Positions 6,357 to 31,195 of a stretch of DNA of 41,023 nucleotides are shown piece by piece. The stretch lies in IMG/VR virus record IMGVR_UViG_2541047694_000003, positions 1 to 41,023 of that record; one strand, written 5' to 3'. Source of the stretch: a virus (lineage: Duplodnaviria; Heunggongvirae; Uroviricota; Caudoviricetes). A program made the translations under genes and the position numbers. Below the pieces are notes generated by a model. The model made no database searches. It was not told the DNA's origin and saw only the letters and a program-made list of their open reading frames with translations. The stretch's first letter is position 1; the number at the start of each line of letters is the position of its first letter.

Positions 6357-6845
6357 TTAAAGATCATAATCAACATTATGAGTATCTATTCTACATGATG
6401 AATAAGTAATTCCGCTTTCACCACTAATATTTACGCCAGCCTTTACCTTCCCTGATTTCGTAACATCAACAAAGAATTGCCCTCTTGGCATTTTAAATGC
6501 AAAAGAGAAACCAATAATTTCCGAGTCAAAGTTATTTTCATCCTCACTAATTGGTACAATAAAAGCCAATGGTGCAGATTGTGAGTTATTTTCAAAATCA
6601 AAAACACCAATACCTTTATTAAACTCGTAGGATGCTTTTTTTATTAAAAGAGTTCCACTTGCCGACTTTGCTGGGCATATTACAGACAGTCTATTTATTC
6701 CACCTACATCTAGATCTATATTCTTATCTGCTGAAGTTTTAACGTTATCTATAAAGTATGTAGCAAGCTGCTTTTCCGTTACTGGCTTCGCAAAGGAGTT
6801 TAATGGCAGTCCTGCAGCCAACAACAATATAAACATTTTCTTCAT
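6357..6845 (-). CDS. secreted/periplasmic protein of unknown function (moron inside the tail gene cluster)
   Basis: start chosen at MKKMFILLLAAGLPLNSFA (Sec-type signal peptide, no lipobox Cys) with AGGAGA SD; AT-rich codon usage unlike flanking tail genes; own downstream terminator. Confidence 0.6.
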   Translation of the reverse strand: MKKMFILLLAAGLPLNSFAKPVTEKQLATYFIDNVKTSADKNIDLDVGGINRLSVICPAKSASGTLLIKKASYEFNKGIGVFDFENNSQSAPLAFIVPISEDENNFDSEIIGFSFAFKMPRGQFFVDVTKSGKVKAGVNISGESGITYSSCRIDTHNVDYDL

Positions 6846-6909
6846 ATTCTCTCCTACATTCAGCACAAACTTTACCACTCAATAACCCTACTTGATTAAA
6901 GTAGGGTTA

Positions 6910-8811
6910 TTATCGCCTGAATGGAGAATACCCCACATCGTGCGTGATTTTCATCAGGGGATCGGCTTTGCCCGGTACATCAATTATCTTCATGCCTGGC
7001 GGAGCATTCTCGAACGTGACTTTCAGTTCGCTGTGCTGTGTCATGGAAGAAGATGGATTCAACAGCGGAACATTGGGTTTGTACTGACTCAGGCTGGCCT
7101 GATACTGCTCGTACTCTTTACGATCAAAAAAAGGCGTCCAGTCTGAAGCCAGAAACAGCCCTTTATTATCCAGCCAGTTAACTGTATCTTCAGGAACAAC
7201 ACTTTCCAGAGTATCTTTAACCGGCTCATACATCAGGGTTCCCAGAAAACCATATACCCCGGCCTTCCCGATAAAGCCGCGGCCTTTCCCCATCAATCCC
7301 GTTTCTGCCGACACCTTCCCCAGCGTACGCATCTCTCTGGTCACTGCGGTAATGGATTTGGTAACGTCAGCAACCCATTTGGTTGTCATAAACAGGGCGA
7401 TCGCTTTCAGAACAGTTTCCCATCCCCCCATCGCCTGCGCCGTTTCATCCACCACGCGCCAGACTTTTTTTATGACAGGACCTACGGTTTCCCAGTTATC
7501 AATAATGAGGTAAGCGGCACCGACCAGAAGAGCAATCAGACCCTTAGCAGGCGTCATATTCATCACACCGCCGAGAACTTTCATGATTCTGGACAAAGAG
7601 CCTGCAGCGGCCCCCACTGTCAGTAAAGCCAGACCGATTTTAGCAATGGTCTTAACGAGCTCCGGGTTTTCACGGACAAACGTTCTCACTTCCTCAAGGA
7701 GCGGTTTTACCGCTTCAAGACCATCATTAACCTCAGGAAGAAACGTTTCCCCCAGAGTGGAAGAAATGGCATCAAGTTGATTTTGCAGAAGTAAAAGCTG
7801 GTTTTCCGTCGTCGCTGCCCTCGAAGCATATTCCTTCTGCATCGAACTGCCATACTGCTGGGAATCCGCAACCCGCCTGAAGTTGGTACGCAACAAATCA
7901 AGGTTAGTCAGCAGAGGTGCTATCGCGCCCAGAGACTCTTTCCCGAACAGGGCATTCAGCACAGCTGCCTGTTTTTCTTTAGGCACTTTAGCCATCGCAT
8001 CCAGTACAGACAGCATGGTTCCCCGGGCATCTTTCTGCATATCAGCAGCTAATTTCTTCGGATTGATCCGCAGAAAACGTAATGCCTGTTTCTGCGATTT
8101 TGTCGCTGAATTTCCCGCGGTCAGGGAAAGCATGAAGTTCTTGATCCCTGTGGCGGCAATTTCTGACTCCACGCCCATCCCGGCAATGGTTGCCCCCATT
8201 GCCGCGATTTCGCCGGAAGCCACACCTGCAACACCACCTAAAGGACCAATACGCGTAACAATATCGGAGATTTTCTTCGCATTCGCCGGGCCGGTATTAC
8301 CAAGGTAGTTGATTTTGTCAGCCAGCCCAGCCACTTCATCCTGCGTCATATTAAACGCAGTACGCCACTGGGCCATCATCTGCCCGGACTCTTCAGCCGT
8401 GGTATCAAAGGCCACGCCCATCTTCACCGCATCAGTGGCAAACTGCATCAGTTCATCACGTGCAATCCCGGCCTGACCGCCAGCCGCCACAATTTCCGCG
8501 ATCCCGTCTGCAGACATGGGAAGCTCAGTAGACAAAGCGCGTACCTGCTCCGTCATGGCCTTAAACGCATCCGGCGTATCCAGACCGTCCACCACTTTGC
8601 GGACATCAGCCATCTTCGATTCAAGGGTGATGGCTGATTTTACAGGGAGTGCCAGTGCCCCCATTATTGCAGTACCCGCCCCGGCAGCGCCCAGAGCAAG
8701 GCTGGAGACTTCTTTCTGAAACCCCTTAAGCTGACGCTGCATACCTTTAAGCGGGCCGGACAGCCTGTCAACGGCGGTGATGATGGCTTTCAGCTGAAAA
8801 TTATCAGCCAT
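6910..8811 (-). CDS. tail tape measure protein
   Basis: 633-aa Ala/Gly-rich, helical ORF between tail assembly chaperone and baseplate genes. Confidence 0.8.
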   Translation of the reverse strand: MADNFQLKAIITAVDRLSGPLKGMQRQLKGFQKEVSSLALGAAGAGTAIMGALALPVKSAITLESKMADVRKVVDGLDTPDAFKAMTEQVRALSTELPMSADGIAEIVAAGGQAGIARDELMQFATDAVKMGVAFDTTAEESGQMMAQWRTAFNMTQDEVAGLADKINYLGNTGPANAKKISDIVTRIGPLGGVAGVASGEIAAMGATIAGMGVESEIAATGIKNFMLSLTAGNSATKSQKQALRFLRINPKKLAADMQKDARGTMLSVLDAMAKVPKEKQAAVLNALFGKESLGAIAPLLTNLDLLRTNFRRVADSQQYGSSMQKEYASRAATTENQLLLLQNQLDAISSTLGETFLPEVNDGLEAVKPLLEEVRTFVRENPELVKTIAKIGLALLTVGAAAGSLSRIMKVLGGVMNMTPAKGLIALLVGAAYLIIDNWETVGPVIKKVWRVVDETAQAMGGWETVLKAIALFMTTKWVADVTKSITAVTREMRTLGKVSAETGLMGKGRGFIGKAGVYGFLGTLMYEPVKDTLESVVPEDTVNWLDNKGLFLASDWTPFFDRKEYEQYQASLSQYKPNVPLLNPSSSMTQHSELKVTFENAPPGMKIIDVPGKADPLMKITHDVGYSPFRR

Positions 8812-23345: not shown

Positions 23346-24401
23346 TCATGCTTTCCACTTCAGGACACCCGAATTTCTCGCGTGCATTAAAAAACGAATC
23401 AGCAACAACAGCTGGCTGCCGTGTTTTTCTTCAAAATCTTTTACCCCGGCGTGCAGTTCGTTATGACATTTACGGCACAGCGGAATAACAAACAAATCAT
23501 CAGCCTTTGTTCCCATCCCTCCCAGTCCATGACCAATGATGTGATGCGGATCATCTGCCTGATTACCGCACGTCATGCATTTCTGCGTTTTTACCCAGCG
23601 CGTGTATACAGGCATCTCTTCCCGTTGTGGTTTCTGGCGCTGGAGATACTGAGCCGGTGACTCCGGATCAACAGCAATGCTGACCACCGTCTTTTCCTGT
23701 GGCGGGTTTTGCTGGTGGGCGTGAGGCAGCGGCGCAAGATTTTTTGTGCGCTGCTTCAGTATGCTGGTGGCGGTCTGCTCTCCCGGTACGATGTCGCTTT
23801 CACGGTACATTGAACGGATTTTTTCCGCACGCAACCCCAGCGAACGACGTAATACCGCTTCCGGTAGCGCGTCCGCCACCTGATTGCGGACCGCCCACCA
23901 GGATAATTCAGCCAGAGATAATTCACGCTCCTGCGTACCGCTTATTGCGTGACCGATGACGTCAATCATCCATGCTGACAGGTTTTGATGAGCAAGTTGC
24001 TCGAGTGATTCGGATGTCTGGTCACGCAGCTGGTTGTCGCAGTGCCAGCACAACACCATTGCGCCGGTACCATAACGGTGAATGACGGTTTCGCTGTGAT
24101 GATAATCGCCGTGTGGCCACTGGCAGGATTTAATATGGCGCAACAGCCAGTCAGACAATGCACCAGCACCACCAGCAGCACGAATCACCCGTGCGTTACT
24201 GAAAAACGGCAGCAATGTTTTGTCTTCCACCAGCGGCTGGCGAGCGGCAGGAACGACCCCGGACGGCAGATTACGCATGCTTTTTGGTTCCGGCTCCACC
24301 AGTATTCTGCCGTTATGGAATGCTGACATTGATTCACGGCCTGGCTTAACGATAACCAGACCGAGTTCCGGTACCAGAACAGGTCGAAGTAATACCCGCA
24401 C
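23346..24401 (-). CDS. DUF968-type (YdfU-like) nin-region protein
   Basis: 351 aa with C-terminal Cys/His cluster ...CMTCGN...DPHHIIGHGLGGMGTKADDLFVIPLCRKCHNELH. Confidence 0.6.
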   Translation of the reverse strand: MRVLLRPVLVPELGLVIVKPGRESMSAFHNGRILVEPEPKSMRNLPSGVVPAARQPLVEDKTLLPFFSNARVIRAAGGAGALSDWLLRHIKSCQWPHGDYHHSETVIHRYGTGAMVLCWHCDNQLRDQTSESLEQLAHQNLSAWMIDVIGHAISGTQERELSLAELSWWAVRNQVADALPEAVLRRSLGLRAEKIRSMYRESDIVPGEQTATSILKQRTKNLAPLPHAHQQNPPQEKTVVSIAVDPESPAQYLQRQKPQREEMPVYTRWVKTQKCMTCGNQADDPHHIIGHGLGGMGTKADDLFVIPLCRKCHNELHAGVKDFEEKHGSQLLLLIRFLMHARNSGVLKWKA

Positions 24402-24402
24402 A

Positions 24403-24681
24403 TTACCTCCAGATCCGTTGCTGGAATGTGCGGGACGGACGCGCTGGCCGTTCGGAGTAAGGGAGCCTGACGGAGATTATCCAGTGACGGTAGTCGAGGC
24501 TAAGGGCTTTTTTAACCTCGCATCCGCGCCTGCGGTAACACTGAATGAGCCATTCGGCCTGTTCTTCAGTGCATGGGGGATGCTGGTACCAGTCAGATTT
24601 GAATGCGTGAAAACACCGTCCGCGCCTGCTGGCAAAGACGGCAGAATCATCAGAATTGTATAATTTGGTATCGTGCGCCAT
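24403..24681 (-). CDS. hypothetical nin-region protein
   Basis: 92-aa ATG ORF immediately upstream of the DUF968 gene. Confidence 0.5.
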   Translation of the reverse strand: MAHDTKLYNSDDSAVFASRRGRCFHAFKSDWYQHPPCTEEQAEWLIQCYRRRGCEVKKALSLDYRHWIISVRLPYSERPARPSRTFQQRIWR

Positions 24682-24751: not shown

Positions 24752-24776
24752 AAAACAAAAACCCGCCGAGGCGGGT
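24752..24776 (-). terminator. rho-independent terminator after the HTH-peptidase gene
   Basis: minus-strand CCCGCC-tc-GGCGGG hairpin followed by TTTTTGTTTT, 12 nt after the stop at 24788. Confidence 0.65.
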
Positions 24777-24787
24777 ATGAATGAGAA

Positions 24788-25933
24788 TTATTTTTGTTTT
24801 ATGGTAAATGAAATAACATTGTCAGAATGAATCATATCTGATTCTTTAAATCGTGTAATTGCAGATAACTCATTTAAAGGAAGAGCAAAGATATCAGTTA
24901 ACTCAGTTACCTTTATGATTGAATGCTTATCAAGAAGTAAAAGTAACTTATTAAGTAACTCAGGCTCTTCTTTTGGGATTGCATCATCTAACGGCTCCCT
25001 ACGATGGAATGGCGCTAATTGCTTAAATATATAGCTTTTCTGATTATCGCTAATTAACTTAAGGCTATGACTCCTCATGGCAATACTACCGATAGATGTA
25101 ATCCAACGTAGTTTTAATCGTTCTAACGCTGATAAATTTGGACTATAAAATTCACGCCCGAAAGTCGTGGCTGGCATTAAAAAGCTGGAGGCAAAATAAT
25201 CGGCCTGCAACTCCACTAGGTCGAATAATTCTTTATCATTCAGGTAGTCATCCTCCACTGCCCTATGCATAATTAAATGGCCAAGTTCATGAGCAAGACT
25301 AAATCGCATGCGAACAGCCGTCTTCGAGCTATCTAACATAATTAAAGGCCGCCCATTATGCCAGAACGAAAAGGCATCAACTTTCTCACCAGAAGGTAAA
25401 TGAGAAACCACGATTCCTTTATTTTCAACAAGTCTAGTTAAATTGAGTATTGGACCATCACCTAACCCCCAAAAACGCCTTAATTGGGTGGACATATCCT
25501 CAATATCAGATAGAGACAGAACCTCAAAATCAATAATATCGAATTCAGGCAGAACCACATCTGGTAATTGAGCATATTTTAGACATTCATCCAATATTAA
25601 TGCCGCCCAACGCCCACGTGTTTTCCCTGTAACTCGAGCCTTTTTGGTCGCAGTTGAACGACTTCTAAAATGAATCGCCCCCTCCAGAGATGGAGAAGCA
25701 CTGGAGGCTAAGAAAAATCGTTCTGGAAATCCTAACACCTTGGCTATTGCAGAAAGTGTATCAGCAGAGGGAGACTTCAACCCCTTCTCAAATGACGAAA
25801 TAGCTTGTCTTGAAATATTGAGCACTCTGGCAAGTTCAGCCATCGTCAACCCTTTTGCCTCTCTTGCCTCCTCAAGGCGACGAGGATTAAACGATTTATC
25901 AGTAAATGGTGTTTGTGCGATATTCATGCTCAT
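24788..25933 (-). CDS. HTH (XRE family) fused to ImmA/IrrE-type zinc metallopeptidase (COG2856-like)
   Basis: 381 aa; N-terminal ...LTMAELARVLNISRQAISSFEKGLKSPS... helix-turn-helix; central HELGHLIMH (HExxH) motif; ATGA overlap with upstream gene; AT-rich. Confidence 0.75.
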   Translation of the reverse strand: MSMNIAQTPFTDKSFNPRRLEEAREAKGLTMAELARVLNISRQAISSFEKGLKSPSADTLSAIAKVLGFPERFFLASSASPSLEGAIHFRSRSTATKKARVTGKTRGRWAALILDECLKYAQLPDVVLPEFDIIDFEVLSLSDIEDMSTQLRRFWGLGDGPILNLTRLVENKGIVVSHLPSGEKVDAFSFWHNGRPLIMLDSSKTAVRMRFSLAHELGHLIMHRAVEDDYLNDKELFDLVELQADYFASSFLMPATTFGREFYSPNLSALERLKLRWITSIGSIAMRSHSLKLISDNQKSYIFKQLAPFHRREPLDDAIPKEEPELLNKLLLLLDKHSIIKVTELTDIFALPLNELSAITRFKESDMIHSDNVISFTIKQK

Positions 25934-26544
25934 GATTGCTGTGATTTAATTATTTGTTCGGTAAGAATCTTGATTTTATCTTCAATCTCAGAATCCACAT
26001 TTTCTGCTTCAACTTCTACCATCGTCATAATTGGTAAAGACTCAGTATAAAGAATCCCGTAATTATCCGAAGAAGGAACAGTTAAATTCAGTTTGGACAA
26101 GTGCTGATTACTGCCATCATGTAACATATAAACATGTCCACCAGACGCTCTCCCATCCAGGGAGTCGGCATTTTCATCCCCAAAATTCAATTCATAATTT
26201 TGATTAGCGTAAACAGCTCTATACAATGCCTGCTTAGGAAGTGGCGCATTACCCGATAAATGATGTGCCGTCATTTTCCAGTTGTTCGAGTGAATCGCAA
26301 TGTGTTTACAATTTTTAGCAGCATTGCTACCGACTTCAAAATCCAGCCCCACACGCTTAGCCGCATTCTCAAGCAATGCATCGGCATAAAACCAGCGCAA
26401 ATATGACTGTGCTTGAGCCCAAAAAGAACCAAACTCTTTTGCCTTCATATGCGAATGAAGATAAGCCTGTGCTAACGCGATCGAAAGCTCTTTGCGGCAC
26501 TCCTTGTCATATGCTTCTAACAACTGTTGAGATAAATTCTGCAT
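25930..26544 (-). CDS. hypothetical protein, upstream partner of the HTH-peptidase (candidate toxin/effector)
   Basis: 204-aa ATG ORF, AGGA SD, stop overlaps partner start; no recognisable motif by eye. Confidence 0.6.
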   Translation of the reverse strand: MQNLSQQLLEAYDKECRKELSIALAQAYLHSHMKAKEFGSFWAQAQSYLRWFYADALLENAAKRVGLDFEVGSNAAKNCKHIAIHSNNWKMTAHHLSGNAPLPKQALYRAVYANQNYELNFGDENADSLDGRASGGHVYMLHDGSNQHLSKLNLTVPSSDNYGILYTESLPIMTMVEVEAENVDSEIEDKIKILTEQIIKSQQS

Positions 26545-26569
26545 GACCGTAATATCCTTGTTGTTTTGG

Positions 26570-26609
26570 TGTCAACCATATTTCCATTTAACATAGACTT
26601 TGTCAACCA
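26570..26609 (-). promoter_or_regulatory. candidate promoter/operator region of the two-gene module
   Basis: two direct copies of TGGTTGACA (minus sense) 31 bp apart, each containing a TTGACA -35-like hexamer, between the upstream terminator and the 204-aa gene. Confidence 0.4.
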
Positions 26610-26620
26610 GATAGATGCTA

Positions 26621-26640
26621 GAAAAACCCGCCGAAGCGGG
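26621..26640 (-). terminator. rho-independent terminator downstream of hok
   Basis: minus-strand CCCGC-ttcg-GCGGG hairpin followed by TTTTTC. Confidence 0.6.
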
Positions 26641-26710
26641 TTAAGCGCGGGTGCATTGAGGATGCCTGACTCATCAGAGGTGGCGAGGGATTTCTCCCCC
26701 GCCAGGTCTC

Positions 26711-26866
26711 TTACTCCTCAGGTTCGTAAGCTGTGAAGACAGCGACCTCCGTCTGGCCGGTTCGGATTCGTACCTCGCAGAGGTCTTTCCTCGTTACCAG
26801 TGCCGTCACAATGACGGTTAAACAGATGACGATCAGGGCGATTAGCATCGCCTTTTGCTGCTTCAT
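26711..26866 (-). CDS. hokD: Hok/Gef-family small membrane toxin (HokD/RelF-like)
   Basis: 51 aa MKQQKAMLIALIVICLTVIVTALVTRKDLCEVRIRTGQTEVAVFTAYEPEE; no relB/relE ORFs found adjacent. Confidence 0.85.
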   Translation of the reverse strand: MKQQKAMLIALIVICLTVIVTALVTRKDLCEVRIRTGQTEVAVFTAYEPEE

Positions 26867-27143
26867 AGCCTGCTTCTCCTTGCCTTTCGGCGCGTAAGAG
26901 GCTAACCTAGATTTGCCGTTCATAGATTGAGCCTCAGATTAATGTTAAGCGTCTTGCAGGACGCGTAAGGTTAACTGGGGCTTTTCTCTATCTGCCTTTG
27001 GTGTTCATGCCTGAGACAGATAGCCTCAAGCACCCGCAGCCATTCTACTTAACTCCCGTCACCTCGCCAATATGAAATCAATCAGAAAGGCGAACCATAA
27101 GAGCAATAGCAAAACAATAAGGCCCGCATGGTCGTACAAAGAC

Positions 27144-28831
27144 TCAGGCACCGTGACATTTTTTGTACTTTATTCCCGAGCCACAGGGGCATTGTTCATT
27201 CCGGCCGACCGCACCAAAAACTTCAGTTAATTTAGTCTTTGCTGCTTTATGGGCAAGCTGTACGATGTAATTTGATTGATTTTGGATTTCTTGACGCTGT
27301 ACACCTGTGAGGCCTTCGATATAGGGAGCAAGGCGCTGCATTTCGACATCAGCTGCTTTATGCTGACCCGATAGTGCCAATATGACTGCGTACTGGCTTC
27401 GAACCTGAATCAGTCGGTGTACTAGACCTGCCTCATTGACAACCGGCAGGACATGTTGCTCCATGACTTCCTTGGCACCGTCGTAATCCTTTATGGCAAC
27501 AAACTCATCCGCCAGATCTTGGCCCACCCTAACCATGGATTCCGGGGCCATGGCCAGATTGTAGAACTTCATCGAATGAATACGCAGTAATGGTGACAGT
27601 TTTCCCTGCGCATCACGAATTCTGGCCAGCAACTCCAGAGCATCAGCCATATGTTTAAAGTGTTCCTGCATATTTTCGGAATGATTAATAGTTTTCCATA
27701 ATGCGTCGGCGTTTTTTCCTATGACATCAGCAGGTGTGATACCAAATAAAGAATAGTACCCTTGTATAACATTACAGCTTAATGTTTCAGCATCCTTGAG
27801 TTTTTTTAATCTCCAGAGTGCAATGGCATGGTTGTAGTCAAAGATGCGTTTATGTTCTTCATCTGGGAGTTGGGGGCGGACTTCCTGTGCCAGCTTTTGA
27901 ACTTCTCGTGCATCATTGCTTTCTGCCGAAAATAACATTCGTTTCATTGCATAGGCCATCTCTTCTTGATAGCCGAACTTGTGCTCCGCAAGTAAAGCTC
28001 CCATGATGTTTAACCTCTGAGCAATGTGGTCGGATATTCCGTCTTTAAGCTCAACGAAAACAAGGCCATCCAATGCCCAGAATTTATGAACAGGTCCCAA
28101 TAAGTCCGATGTTGCAGCACGCTCCAAGCTTGCAAGAATGTCGACCGTCACGCCCATCTCATAAAACATTTCTTGGCCTGAGAGTTCGATCAACGTCGTG
28201 ACATCATTGAGCTTAATATAAAGTTGAGTCAACAACGATAACCGTTTTGTATTGCGGGTATTATGAAGACTTTCAACTAAAAGGTCTTTCAGCGCTAGTA
28301 GCGCTTTGTTCGATATACCCTGATCCATCAGTTCCAGATGTTGCAGTCCTAGCCCCCTGACAGCATCATGTACCTTCAGGGTCTGGTTTCCATAAATTTC
28401 AATAGTGCCAGTAGCGCGCATTTTCCTAATTAAAGAAGCCGCACTGCTTGGTGAAATGTTCAGCGAATTGATTAGGAGCGTAGAAATCTCTTCGCGACTC
28501 AGCCCTACGTCAGAGAGACTGAACAATGCCAGCGCGCTCTGAAGTAGTGATTCAAATCCCTGAAATACACGTGACAGAATAATTTCTTGGGCGGTTTCCG
28601 CAGTATGGGTTTGTTGCTGGAGTTCAGCACACAGAGCATCGACACTACGCTCATAATCAGAAACGGCGATTTTTGCGGCGCTCTCTACATACAGGGGAAG
28701 ACCACCAGTGTAAGCCCGTAGCTGCTCGTATCCCATAGCGGTGGCAAATCCTCCGATATCGTTTACAACGACAGCTACCGTATCGAGATTCCATCCCTGC
28801 AGGCCCTCGCGCTGTAGCCCCGTCATGACCT
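27144..28831 (-). pseudogene. C-terminal part of a ~934-aa STAND-like NTPase gene split by IS911 (helical repeat region ending in a SEC-C zinc motif)
   Basis: 560 codons ending ...NEQCPCGSGIKYKKCHGA; reading frame continuous with 30082..31195 once the IS and one CCT copy are removed. Confidence 0.7.
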
Positions 28832-28861
28832 TGAAGTGGTCAACAAAAACTGGCCACCGAG

Positions 28862-30009
<1,148 letters not shown>

Positions 30010-30081
30010 TATGGCACCTGTGTTGTTCTGAGGTGAGCATATCACCTCTGTTCAGGTGGCCAAATTCAGTAAACCACTTCA

Positions 30082-31195
30082 CCTCCAGTTCGCGAACGTT
30101 TTCGTGAGGCTGGCACAACAGCACAAAACGAATATGTGTAGTTGCATTCAGAACATCCCGTAGATTTTCCGCAGGTACACGATGGGCGTTATCCAGAACC
30201 AGCACCAAGGTGGTACCCTGCTCTTTCAGGTAGGTATCAAAACTCCTAAGAGCCTCAAAACCACTGGCACCGGGGAGCAAAATCCTGCGCAAACCGTCTT
30301 GGTCACGGGCTGTAAATCTAGCAGCCATCTCGCGCACCAGCGTACTGGCCAGAGCTGGACCGGGAAGATCACCGGTGTCGTAATAAGCACAAAGTGCAGT
30401 GGAGTGTAATGCGGCCTGTGCGGCCCAAGCTGTCTTGCCTGCACCTGAGAGTCCACAAAGGATACGGATCCGCTCACCAGATGTGAGAGAAGGTTCTTCG
30501 TTTTGTGGGCGGTACAGTGCTGGTGGTGCAGGAAAGTCCTGTAGCTGAACGATCAACTGTTCAAATAGTTCAGTAAGTTCCTCCGTGAAAAACGTATGTT
30601 GTCCATTGGTATCGCCTCCGGTGGCGGCAAGCTGAACCAACCCTGCTAACTTCCAAATCAAGGATTCTGGGGACAATAGTGAAAATTTCAGCTTTTCTGC
30701 TTCTGCGATACACCATGTGGCCGCATCAGCCAGAGTACTCCATGCGGGCGGAAGTGCCGGATGACGTCCAGCTGTCGACTGGGGCCAGACAATAAGAACA
30801 TCAGAAGGAAGCTTTTTATCGTCAATCATCTTCTGAAGCAGCGGTCCAGGCGCCTGGTTTACAATAATCACAAAAGAAGCCACCCCTTCGCGGTTTGCCG
30901 AAGTATGCTCATTTCTGAGCTTTACAAATCGCTCCAGAGCCCCCGACACATCGTTGGGCATAATAGGCTTTGAACGGGTTTTAACCTGAATGTAGAGACG
31001 TTCCTGTTTGGATTTCAGCTCAATATCCTCATCAAGCTCGACAGTTACTGAGTCCATAGCAGCCCTCTGCGCCAAAAGTAAGCAGCCTACAGCGTAAAGA
31101 TGCTGGTAAAGGAACCCCCGGTGTACCGCTTCGATACGCACCAACTGCACAGGATCCAGTACGTCCAGATTTTGTTTGTTTTCACTTCCCCACAT
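30082..31195 (-). pseudogene. N-terminal part of the IS-disrupted STAND-like NTPase gene (nuclease-like N-domain plus P-loop)
   Basis: 371 gene-derived codons (the 34 further codons of tracked ORF 29978..31195 are IS read-through); Walker A GLSGAGKT, Walker B-like LVLVLDNAH; N-terminal ...VELDEDIELKSKQERLYIQVK... PD-(D/E)xK-like pattern; AAGGAAT SD. Confidence 0.7.

Follow-up and report, generated by a model that had tools for sequence, protein, structure and literature searches.

A two-gene cassette on the minus strand of the 41,023-nt stretch of phage DNA analysed here (the window) is probably a RosmerTA (RmrT-RmrA) locus, that is, a type II-like toxin-antitoxin or abortive-infection moron of a lambdoid, Rac/DLP12-like E. 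coli prophage. In the cassette, a single promoter and a single terminator frame two overlapping genes. The first gene, rmrT (25930..26544), encodes a putative toxin of 204 aa (WP_001180546.1) and the second, rmrA (24788..25933), an antitoxin/regulator of 381 aa (WP_000062344.1), the rmrT stop and the rmrA start overlapping as ATGA. An alternative rmrA start at an ATG two codons downstream, annotated in some database records, would yield a 379-aa product. The GC content of the cassette is 39.8%, versus 50.2% across the window, in agreement with a preliminary description of the region as an AT-rich, coupled gene pair. A literature search by accession and name for WP_001180546, WP_000062344 and phage Tritos found no publication.

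On sequence criteria, the 381-aa protein qualifies as a complete RmrA, composed of an XRE-type helix-turn-helix (HTH), an M78 zinc peptidase and a C-terminal domain. Pfam places HTH_3 at residues 20-73 (25715..25876; E = 2.4e-16) and Peptidase_M78 at residues 170-287 (25073..25426; E = 9.7e-19); the HExxH motif reads HELGH (residues 215-219; 25277..25291) and about 90 aa extend beyond the peptidase. The PADLOC RmrA model PDLC03947 matches over its full length (residues 11-380; E = 5.5e-102), and identity to the RmrA of the verified E. coli OLC-716 system is 31% over 354 aa (E = 4e-41). Additional matches are found to PADLOC capP (1.5e-21) and capH (1.7e-10) and, among PDB sequences, to CapP, ImmR, DdrO and IrrE. 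Membership of the RipAB (spr1629-spr1630) subgroup was considered and rejected, as the NCBIfam spr1629 family NF052239 scores 187 bits, under its 335-bit equivalog cutoff, and the toxin is not homologous to RipA.

Pfam and PADLOC searches, proposed earlier as a check, both identify rmrA, whereas rmrT matches PADLOC RmrT models and has no Pfam match. The 204-aa protein is recognized by PDLC03933 (E = 7.5e-10) and PDLC03934 (E = 6e-8), the match being partial (residues 47-161). PDLC03933 also matches all 36 aligned members of its family, namely the window protein and 35 relatives, with a best E-value of 3.3e-51, while Pfam and NCBIfam give no match for any of the 36. The family is thus already represented in PADLOC, by PDLC03933/34/37. 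Accordingly, the preliminary reading of an HTH-ImmA/IrrE (COG2856) antitoxin beside a variable partner is confirmed, and RosmerTA, which had been named as an example of such modules, is the system to which both proteins are assigned. On the other hand, the claims that the 204-aa protein has no recognizable motif and is a candidate new toxin went too far: by sequence, it falls within a known class of toxins and is new only as a member of a separate RmrT sequence family.

This family shows no detectable similarity to the verified OLC-716 RmrT (BLASTP E > 2; hhalign probability 2.5%) or to RipA (hhalign probability 0.2%), nor did cluster look-ups link it to the E. coli E101 toxin WP_001179380.1 or to Vmi480. 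An alignment-based homologue search of a word-indexed protein database added few members, and a genome-contig scan with a narrow alignment one Serratia locus. Because the RmrT class is defined by partnership with RmrA rather than as one homologous family, non-homology to the verified RmrT does not exclude membership. With toxin similarity undetectable, functional transfer therefore rests on the shared partner, a similar predicted topology and a motif of five to six residues.

This motif, N-Y-E-L-N-F at RmrT residues 116-121 (26182..26199, minus strand), resembles β-clamp-binding motifs, as judged by alignment, a motif table and pLDDT, and the peptide containing it, ANQNYELNFGDEN, is a candidate DnaN ligand. 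It is followed by GDENAD and lies in a low-confidence loop (pLDDT 52-68 over residues 101-130); N116 and F121 are nearly invariant in the family alignment. Clamp-binding motifs conform to QLxLF or QLxLxF and occur in loops or tails with acidic flanks, and replacing Q by N has a modest effect in peptides (PMC11139829). Position 1 of the window motif is Asn, not Gln, and the same review documents no natural clamp ligand with Asn at this position. The strict pattern N-x-[DSE]-L-F is present in 28 of the 36 family members, the family consensus being N-x-D-L-F, and Firmicute members carry NQISLF. In the family of the verified RmrT, 24 of 25 members have QLxLDL or NLDLF in a disordered loop. RipA of Streptococcus pneumoniae starts with M-L-N-Q-D-L-F, of which N-Q-D-L-F fits the window-family consensus, although this exact motif is N-terminal, unlike the loop position in the window RmrT. 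When RipA is shuffled, N.[DS]LF arises with a probability of 0.008; looser forms of the motif turn up in 13-20% of shuffled sequences. DnaN is bound by RipA, and its hydrophobic pocket is the site of suppressor mutations (PMC12795458); the publications consulted on this binding make no mention of such a motif. No RipA relatives were found in viral contigs.

The three RmrT families carrying the clamp-like motif, represented by the window protein, the verified OLC-716 toxin and pneumococcal RipA, have no detectable mutual sequence similarity. A motif common to families so dissimilar in sequence, in disordered segments, suggests that Rosmer toxins may form one functional class of sliding-clamp poisons, a proposal we make tentatively and rate somewhat below an even chance. 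The comparison with RosmerTA of E. coli OLC-716, a verified defence system (Millman et al. 2022), extends beyond the motif. Like the window locus, it is a two-gene operon with the toxin gene first, and its RmrA has the same length and architecture. The RmrT models of both systems show the same order of secondary structure elements and the same weak restriction-endonuclease matches, suggesting a common scaffold of this type, and in both toxins the clamp-like motif sits in a disordered loop between a short helix and the second sheet. They differ in that the OLC-716 RmrT matches PDLC03935 and the window RmrT PDLC03933, with sequence and profile similarity undetectable, and in their upstream regulatory DNA.

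The fold itself invites another explanation, in which RmrT is a divergent PD-(D/E)xK-like nuclease that cuts DNA or RNA once freed from RmrA, the loop motif being structural or a tether. The confidently predicted model is a globular α/β fold. A profile search of PDB sequences with RmrT gave no match and Foldseek against the PDB returned nothing significant, but the non-significant list is headed by McrC, Hjc, R2 endonuclease and TSEN, so that the predicted fold weakly resembles restriction endonucleases. Moreover, the family alignment contains strongly conserved polar residues (N74, N78, H81, T92, R109, H142 and E181) suggestive of an active or binding site. PD-(D/E)xK nucleases have an alpha-beta-beta-beta-alpha-beta core whose second and third strands bear the acidic residues and Lys of the D...(D/E)xK signature. 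However, no conserved signature of this kind is visible on the corresponding strands of the first sheet in RmrT (residues 80-86 and 89-95), where N78/H81 and T92-x-H94 are found instead, and a nuclease would leave the clamp-like motif common to three RmrT families unexplained. We therefore regard a nuclease as unlikely.

The window RmrT family is rare, being found in 41 of 5,426 complete E. coli genomes, in a single record among 50,697 phage records and on no plasmid. Outside E. coli, rmrT is followed by a gene for an HTH_3 plus M78 protein of 378-382 aa in Serratia, Yersinia, two enterobacterial phages from metagenomes and two Firmicute prophage contigs. In all, nine loci besides the window, from Serratia, Yersinia, enterobacterial phage and Firmicute contigs, show the same pair in the same order, although two of the contigs are short and end within the downstream gene, which then lacks a Pfam assignment. 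As far as these sequences indicate, the family is always paired with a downstream RmrA. In the window, hokD flanks the cassette on one side and the DUF968/RusA/Q genes on the other; the integrase and the annotated LexA-family prophage repressor are both far away, the latter about 8 kb from rmrA. In several phages of unrelated context the cassette is found in variable moron slots, one of them the cI-N interval of a Yersinia phage. Two neighbours in the window are an addiction-type hok/sok locus, which adjoins the cassette, and an IS-disrupted gene encoding a Cap4-nuclease/AAA/SEC-C protein.

The preliminary description rightly regarded the pair as insulated by terminators. Both hairpins do fold, but they are copies of one element. 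The intrinsic terminator after rmrA (24752..24776, minus strand) was identified by a terminator scan and by folding; its hairpin (24776..24761), followed by a T-run, has a folding energy of -12.1 kcal/mol (z = -3.6). The upstream hairpin, which is the hokD terminator (about 26621..26641, minus strand), was recognized by folding and repeat comparison; it folds at 26640..26621 with -11.8 to -13.9 kcal/mol (z = -1.8) and was missed by the consensus terminator scan. Positions 24757-24776 and 26622-26641 form a direct repeat, matching at 19 of 20 positions, which bounds the inserted cassette. The empty site in O157 contains a single hairpin, corresponding to the upstream copy, and is contiguous in 3,384 of the 5,426 E. 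coli genomes. The insertion is exact, measures 1,865 bp and adjoins the hokD terminator, which is present on both flanks. The two bracketing terminators are thus a single hokD terminator duplicated through insertion of the cassette. A GC-rich hairpin followed by a T-run occupies the terminator position in every homologous locus.

The promoter and candidate operator of the cassette (26570..26612, minus strand) were delineated by sequence reading and conserved repeats. A perfect -35 element, TTGACA (26606..26601), is separated from an extended -10 element, AAATAT (26583..26578), by a spacer of 17 nt that includes TGn. Two copies of TGGTTGACA are located upstream of rmrT, at 26609..26601 and 26578..26570; in the extended form AT(C/A)TGGTTGACA, they cover 26612..26601 and 26581..26570 and are spaced 31 bp apart. 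No further copies of TGGTTGAC were found on either strand of the 41-kb window. Both copies are invariant in seven homologous loci with otherwise unrelated flanks, and the core TGGTTGACAAA...G.AAA..TGGTTGAC is kept unchanged in all seven. Judged from these loci, conservation of the repeats exceeds chance expectation; the two direct repeats reported earlier are both real and unique to this part of the window. Since they overlap the -35 and -10/+1 positions, they are operator-like. The second TTGACA does not serve as an additional promoter, as no -10 element follows it in any locus.

Taken together with reports on related systems, these features allow a model to be outlined. In the lysogen, the cassette promoter would drive both genes, and the HTH domain of RmrA may bind both TGGTTGAC repeats over the -35 and -10/+1 regions, making the operon autoregulated. 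RmrA would neutralize RmrT post-translationally with the aid of ClpX(P) from the host, in line with reports on other Rosmer systems, and RmrT would consequently be scarce and unstable. Dependence on ClpX/ClpP has been described in S. pneumoniae, E. coli E101 and three Pectobacteriaceae strains. In homologous architectures, no ΔrmrA mutant could be recovered, and ripB neutralizes in trans in the ripA/ripB pair (PMC12795458). If a phage or stress were to disturb RmrA or ClpXP, RmrT might accumulate, its N-Y-E-L-N-F loop docking in the DnaN cleft and stalling replication of both host and phage in an abortive-infection response; we rate this sequence of events somewhat less likely than not. A phage trigger and a role for the peptidase are steps that we infer for RmrTA. 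The restriction-endonuclease-like fold of RmrT might add a nucleic-acid activity, although canonical catalytic residues are not apparent.

A mechanistic template for the window pair is provided by RipAB (Spr1630/Spr1629), a Rosmer-type pair for which ClpX-dependent neutralization and DnaN targeting have been described (PLoS Genet 2025, PMC12795458). Its antitoxin RipB is an RmrA of full length, and the PADLOC RmrT model PDLC03931 recognizes RipA. By contrast, RipA has 243 aa and no profile similarity to the window RmrT family, and RipAB is encoded on the chromosome and was investigated in the context of competence, not defence, whereas the window pair is prophage-borne. In its mode of action only, the proposed mechanism also recalls the type VI system SocAB of Caulobacter crescentus, outlined as a toxin that blocks the β-clamp cleft and is kept down by ClpXP; SocA is a ClpXP adaptor, whereas the window antitoxin is an HTH-metallopeptidase.

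RipAB also lends weight to the idea that the cassette chiefly serves addiction or a stress response and has no anti-phage role, stabilizing the prophage or triggering a replication-stress response much as RipAB does for competence, since that pair was described for competence signalling and not for defence (PMC12795458). In line with this, rmrA is essential in Tn-seq, ClpX dependence arises without phage, and hok/sok, another addiction-type locus, lies next to the cassette. Against it, phage protection is conferred by two Rosmer systems, that of E. coli OLC-716 and that of Gordonia phage Kita, several phages, among them the Yersinia phage, carry the cassette in variable moron slots, and an IS-disrupted neighbour, the Cap4-nuclease/AAA/SEC-C gene, lies beside it. 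A main role in addiction or stress, with none against phages, appears improbable to us.

Defence by toxin release must further be distinguished from a role in prophage induction. HTH repressors are substrates of M78 peptidases such as ImmA, IrrE and CapP, and the window protein is prophage-borne, which would fit a conventional ImmA-like anti-repressor with the 204-aa protein as an accessory regulator. However, the HTH is fused to the peptidase, the prophage repressor is of the LexA family and distant, and the pair is missing from most similar prophages, the site being empty in the 3,384 genomes mentioned above. The pair also travels between unrelated phage backbones as one module that brings along its promoter, operator and terminator. 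An anti-repressor function, raised as an alternative in the preliminary description, is thus very unlikely and was set aside. An ImmR/ImmA-type module, comprising a stand-alone M78 peptidase, a separate HTH repressor and an integrase, was likewise rejected, as the HTH is fused and the cassette is far from both other components.

The HTH and M78 modules of RmrA are nevertheless homologous to those of CapH/CapP, ImmR/ImmA and DdrO/IrrE. By analogy with these repressor-protease pairs, a signal-activated cleavage that relieves HTH repression is suggested. Unlike the pairs, the window RmrA combines both modules in one protein with an extra C-terminal domain and would control a toxin of the same operon.

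The combination of a toxin with an HTH-zinc-peptidase antitoxin recurs in RmrTA of Gordonia phage Kita (Ernits et al. 2023) and in vmi480/vmi470 of Vibrio mimicus (Luo et al. 2015). Toxicity and neutralization were shown for both pairs, which are phage- or island-borne. The Kita toxin is membrane-associated and depolarizing, showing that RmrT activities are not uniform. That the window RmrT acts in the same way as this RmrT-D5 is extremely doubtful: although the Kita protein is the sole RmrT with an imaged cellular effect, which a later paper generalizes to Rosmer toxins, the window RmrT is soluble and acidic (GRAVY -0.47; maximal Kyte-Doolittle 19-residue mean 0.7), lacks a hydrophobic segment and is confidently modelled as a globular protein.

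As PADLOC models already match both proteins, the catalogue of defence systems is unchanged, and the window adds one more RosmerTA locus in prophage moron slots. Its bounds, empty site, promoter and candidate operator are placed to the base, making it ready for cloning and autoregulation tests. The shared clamp-like motif offers a concrete hypothesis, cheap to test, as to how Rosmer toxins from distinct sequence families may kill, and it also bears on the repeatedly observed, unexplained need of Rosmer hosts for ClpX(P). If the clamp-poison reading is true, the host and any clamp-dependent phage would cease to replicate, and Rosmer would be a phage-borne functional analogue of SocAB. The replication clamp would then be the target of a widespread abortive-infection family, and the phages predicted to escape would be those with their own processivity factor.

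The two overlapping minus-strand open reading frames first described from the sequence are both present: rmrT, encoding a 204-aa putative toxin (25930..26544), and rmrA, encoding a 381-aa protein (24788..25933), with the rmrT stop and rmrA start codons sharing ATGA. The pair is AT-rich as proposed, having 39.8% GC (24752..26612) against 50.2% in the window. In RmrA, the claimed fusion of a helix-turn-helix to an ImmA/IrrE peptidase is borne out by Pfam (HTH_3 at residues 20-73, Peptidase_M78 at residues 170-287), with HELGH at residues 215-219. The rmrA start is ambiguous (25927..25933), as the ATG overlapping the rmrT stop yields 381 aa and an ATG two codons later yields 379 aa, which accounts for the 379-aa database versions; public records contain annotations of either form, and a strong Shine-Dalgarno sequence is absent at both ATGs.

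Profile searches, suggested in the preliminary description, assign both proteins to RosmerTA, an anti-phage toxin-antitoxin system composed of RmrT and RmrA. The PADLOC RmrA model matches the 381-aa protein over its entire length (E 5.5e-102), and the RmrT models PDLC03933 (E 7.5e-10) and PDLC03934 (E 6e-8) match the 204-aa protein. Both proteins have PHROGs matches, phrog_35814 (unknown function) and phrog_2439; Pfam and NCBIfam searches of the toxin gave no match. An exhaustive phmmer search of 1.84 billion cluster representatives returned 44 relatives of the 204-aa protein, mostly of ~200 aa. All 36 aligned members of this window family match PDLC03933 (best E 3.3e-51), which, judged by sequence, makes the window protein a divergent member of an already catalogued RmrT family. 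The initial interpretation was largely right: the reading as an HTH-COG2856 toxin-antitoxin pair stands, but the putative toxin, matching catalogued RmrT models, is not of a new kind. Over 354 aa, window RmrA shares 31% identity with the RmrA of the experimentally verified system of E. coli OLC-716, a sequence taken from the supplement of Millman et al. The verified RmrT falls in another family, PDLC03935, and shows no similarity to the window family by BLASTP or profile comparison, in agreement with the literature, where RmrT denotes whichever toxin pairs with RmrA.

The cassette is delimited to the nucleotide. A 19/20 direct repeat, AAAAACCCGCCGARGCGGGT, bounds it at 24757-24776 and 26622-26641, 1,865 bp apart. 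A query representing the empty site, made by synthetically joining the two cassette flanks, was matched in one piece at 97% identity, with coverage of at least 80% in 3,384 of 5,426 E. coli genomes. Alignment with both junctions revealed a single hokD terminator at the O157 empty site and two copies in the window. Both hairpins bracketing the pair are therefore one hokD terminator duplicated by insertion, and the cassette is an exact 1,865-bp insertion. Thus, the bracketing originally noted is real, but not as two separate terminators. The downstream hairpin with its T-run (24776..24761; -12.1 kcal/mol, z -3.6) was detected by the terminator scan. The upstream one (26640..26621; -11.8 to -13.9 kcal/mol), comprising 5-7 GC-rich pairs, a 4-nt loop and a TTTTT run, was missed by the consensus scan, the negatives of which need caution. 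In every homologous locus, rmrA is immediately followed on its 3' side by a GC hairpin and T-run of its own. Recombination between the 20-nt repeats would excise the cassette cleanly.

Of 5,426 complete E. coli genomes, 41 carry the cassette DNA on the chromosome (99.7-100% identity among the matches listed). Escherichia phage Tritos has it too, with the two genes labelled "hypothetical protein" and "ImmA/IrrE metallo-endopeptidase". Beyond Tritos, tblastn detected the toxin in no phage among 50,697 records, nor in plasmids. The window corresponds to a lambdoid prophage that in E. coli AHB10, for instance, sits at tRNA-Ser/mtfA, and its gene order (hokD, cassette, 92-aa ORF, then DUF968, RusA and Q) agrees with the nin-type location assigned earlier. 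Relatives sharing 27-73% identity were found in Serratia, Yersinia, two metagenomic enterobacterial phages and two Firmicute prophage contigs. A 378-382-aa HTH_3 and M78 gene comes after rmrT in all these loci, while their sites differ: between cI and N, after primase, in the nin region, or beside the lysis module.

Regarding the neighbouring genes, the 92-aa ORF (24403..24681, minus strand), without Pfam match, lies between the cassette and a DUF968/HNH-like protein (23346..24401, minus strand). It is also kept beside hokD at empty sites and therefore belongs to the phage backbone rather than the cassette. Directly upstream of the cassette is a hokD/sok type I toxin-antitoxin locus (26621..27035, minus strand; Pfam HOK_GEF 3e-23, Rfam sok 106 bits). 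The hokD 3' end and terminator (26621..26702) also match the Rfam family isrK, a Salmonella prophage sRNA, below threshold (26.1 bits; gathering score 50). A large gene at 27144..31195 (minus strand) is interrupted by an IS3-family element (orfA 29707..30045, orfB 28862..29680). In its N-terminal fragment (29978..31195, 405 aa), a Cap4 dsDNA-nuclease domain is combined with an AAA_22/AAA_16 ATPase, and a SEC-C motif closes the C-terminal fragment (27144..28826, 560 aa); the gene resembles an inactivated STAND/Avs-like single-gene defence candidate. The IS apparently lies elsewhere within the same gene in AHB10, and other genomes carry QueH or an unrelated 444-aa ORF in this slot, which seems to be a variable hotspot adjoining the Rosmer cassette.

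The two direct repeats reported upstream of rmrT, TGGTTGACA, are located at 26609..26601 and 26578..26570, and neither strand of the window contains a further copy of TGGTTGAC. When the 160 bp upstream of rmrT were aligned for seven loci, a ~45-bp core, TGGTTGACAAA-N-...-G-N-AAA-NN-TGGTTGAC, proved invariant between unrelated flanks. It holds a putative promoter with -35 TTGACA (26606..26601), a 17-nt spacer ending in TGn and -10 AAATAT (26583..26578). One repeat covers the -35 and the other the -10/+1 region, spaced by 31 bp and hence on the same helix face. Because the second TTGACA is followed by a -10 in none of the seven loci, the repeats are read as a candidate operator for the RmrA HTH.

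By computation from sequence, RmrT is a soluble protein with an acidic pI of 5.7 and lacks a hydrophobic segment, in contrast to the membrane-depolarising RmrT of Gordonia phage Kita. Structure prediction, likewise proposed at the outset, gave a confident AlphaFold2 model (pLDDT 85.6, pTM 0.80; 36-sequence alignment). The fold opens with a long N-terminal helix, followed by three strands and a short helix; after a low-confidence loop (~101-135) come three further strands and an acidic C-terminal helix. Conserved positions in the window-family alignment are N74, N78, H81, T92, R109, N116, F121, H142, P157 and E181.

RmrA also has a sub-cutoff match (187 bits against 335) to the NCBIfam "spr1629 family repressor/antitoxin" model, which points to the pneumococcal pair RipAB, where Spr1630/RipA is a Rosmer toxin (bioRxiv 10.1101/2025.09.02.673660; PLoS Genet, PMC12795458). 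RipA interacts with the sliding clamp DnaN, its suppressors map to the DnaN hydrophobic cleft, and RipB neutralises it in trans only with intact ClpX (PMC12795458). Furthermore, a Rosmer-type HTH-Zn-peptidase pair makes ClpP or ClpX essential in E. coli E101, and ClpX essentiality coincides with RosmerTA carriage in three Pectobacteriaceae strains.

The near-invariant N116...F121 of the window family, whose likeness to a clamp motif had been noted before the RipA sequence was obtained, forms N-x-[DS]-L-F within the low-confidence loop and resembles the clamp-binding consensus QL[SD]LF. Window RmrT reads N-Y-E-L-N-F, then GDENAD, and the Firmicute relatives N-Q-I-S-L-F; N-x-[DSE]-L-F is present in 28 of 36 members, the remainder having looser variants. 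Natural clamp motifs (Q-phi-x-[LM]-[FL] or Q-phi-x-[LM]-x-[FL]) sit in tails or internal loops with acidic flanks, and Q-to-N causes merely a modest affinity loss (PMC11139829). Using a published primer as search pattern, ripA was recovered from metagenome contigs (pneumococcal ripAB at 6545..8442 of metagenome contig L018). The RmrT model matching RipA is a third one, PDLC03931 (E 1.6e-80), and RipA has no profile similarity to the window family. It begins with M-L-N-Q-D-L-F, a near-consensus β-clamp-binding motif (chance of N.[DS]LF in shuffled RipA, 0.008), placed N-terminally rather than in a loop as in the window family. Verified OLC-716 RmrT contains Q-L-K-L-D-L, an exact QLxLxL hexapeptide clamp motif (residues ~143-148 of family alignment A5), in a loop with pLDDT below 50. 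Enterobacterial members of that family have Q-L-x-L-D-L in this disordered loop and those of Vibrio, Photobacterium and Shewanella have N-L-D-L-F, one or the other being present in 24 of 25 family members. Among shuffled sequences, 13-20% contain loose forms of the motif. The RipAB paper says nothing of a clamp motif in either version.

Promoter, rmrT, rmrA and terminator together form an autonomous Rosmer-type cassette inserted in a prophage. RmrA would repress the promoter through the two repeats and, at the protein level, neutralise RmrT together with ClpX(P). Signal-activated cleavage of the RmrA HTH module is plausible, given the analogy with CapP/CapH and ImmA/ImmR. Phage or stress disturbance would let RmrT accumulate. 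Tentatively, at somewhat less than even odds, RmrT may then use its loop motif to bind the DnaN cleft, halting replication. The main alternative or addition would be a nuclease-type activity on a restriction-endonuclease-like scaffold. The verified family model (pLDDT 79) has an element order identical to that of window RmrT and recovers the same enzymes as weak matches (NaeI 5.6, SfiI 5.0, SwaI, EcoRV, ThaI). RmrT shows no evident canonical D...(D/E)xK residues, and we regard a nuclease-type activity as unlikely. The value of the finding lies in a fully delimited cassette and in the clamp-motif hypothesis which, if true, would unify Rosmer toxins and explain their ClpX dependence.
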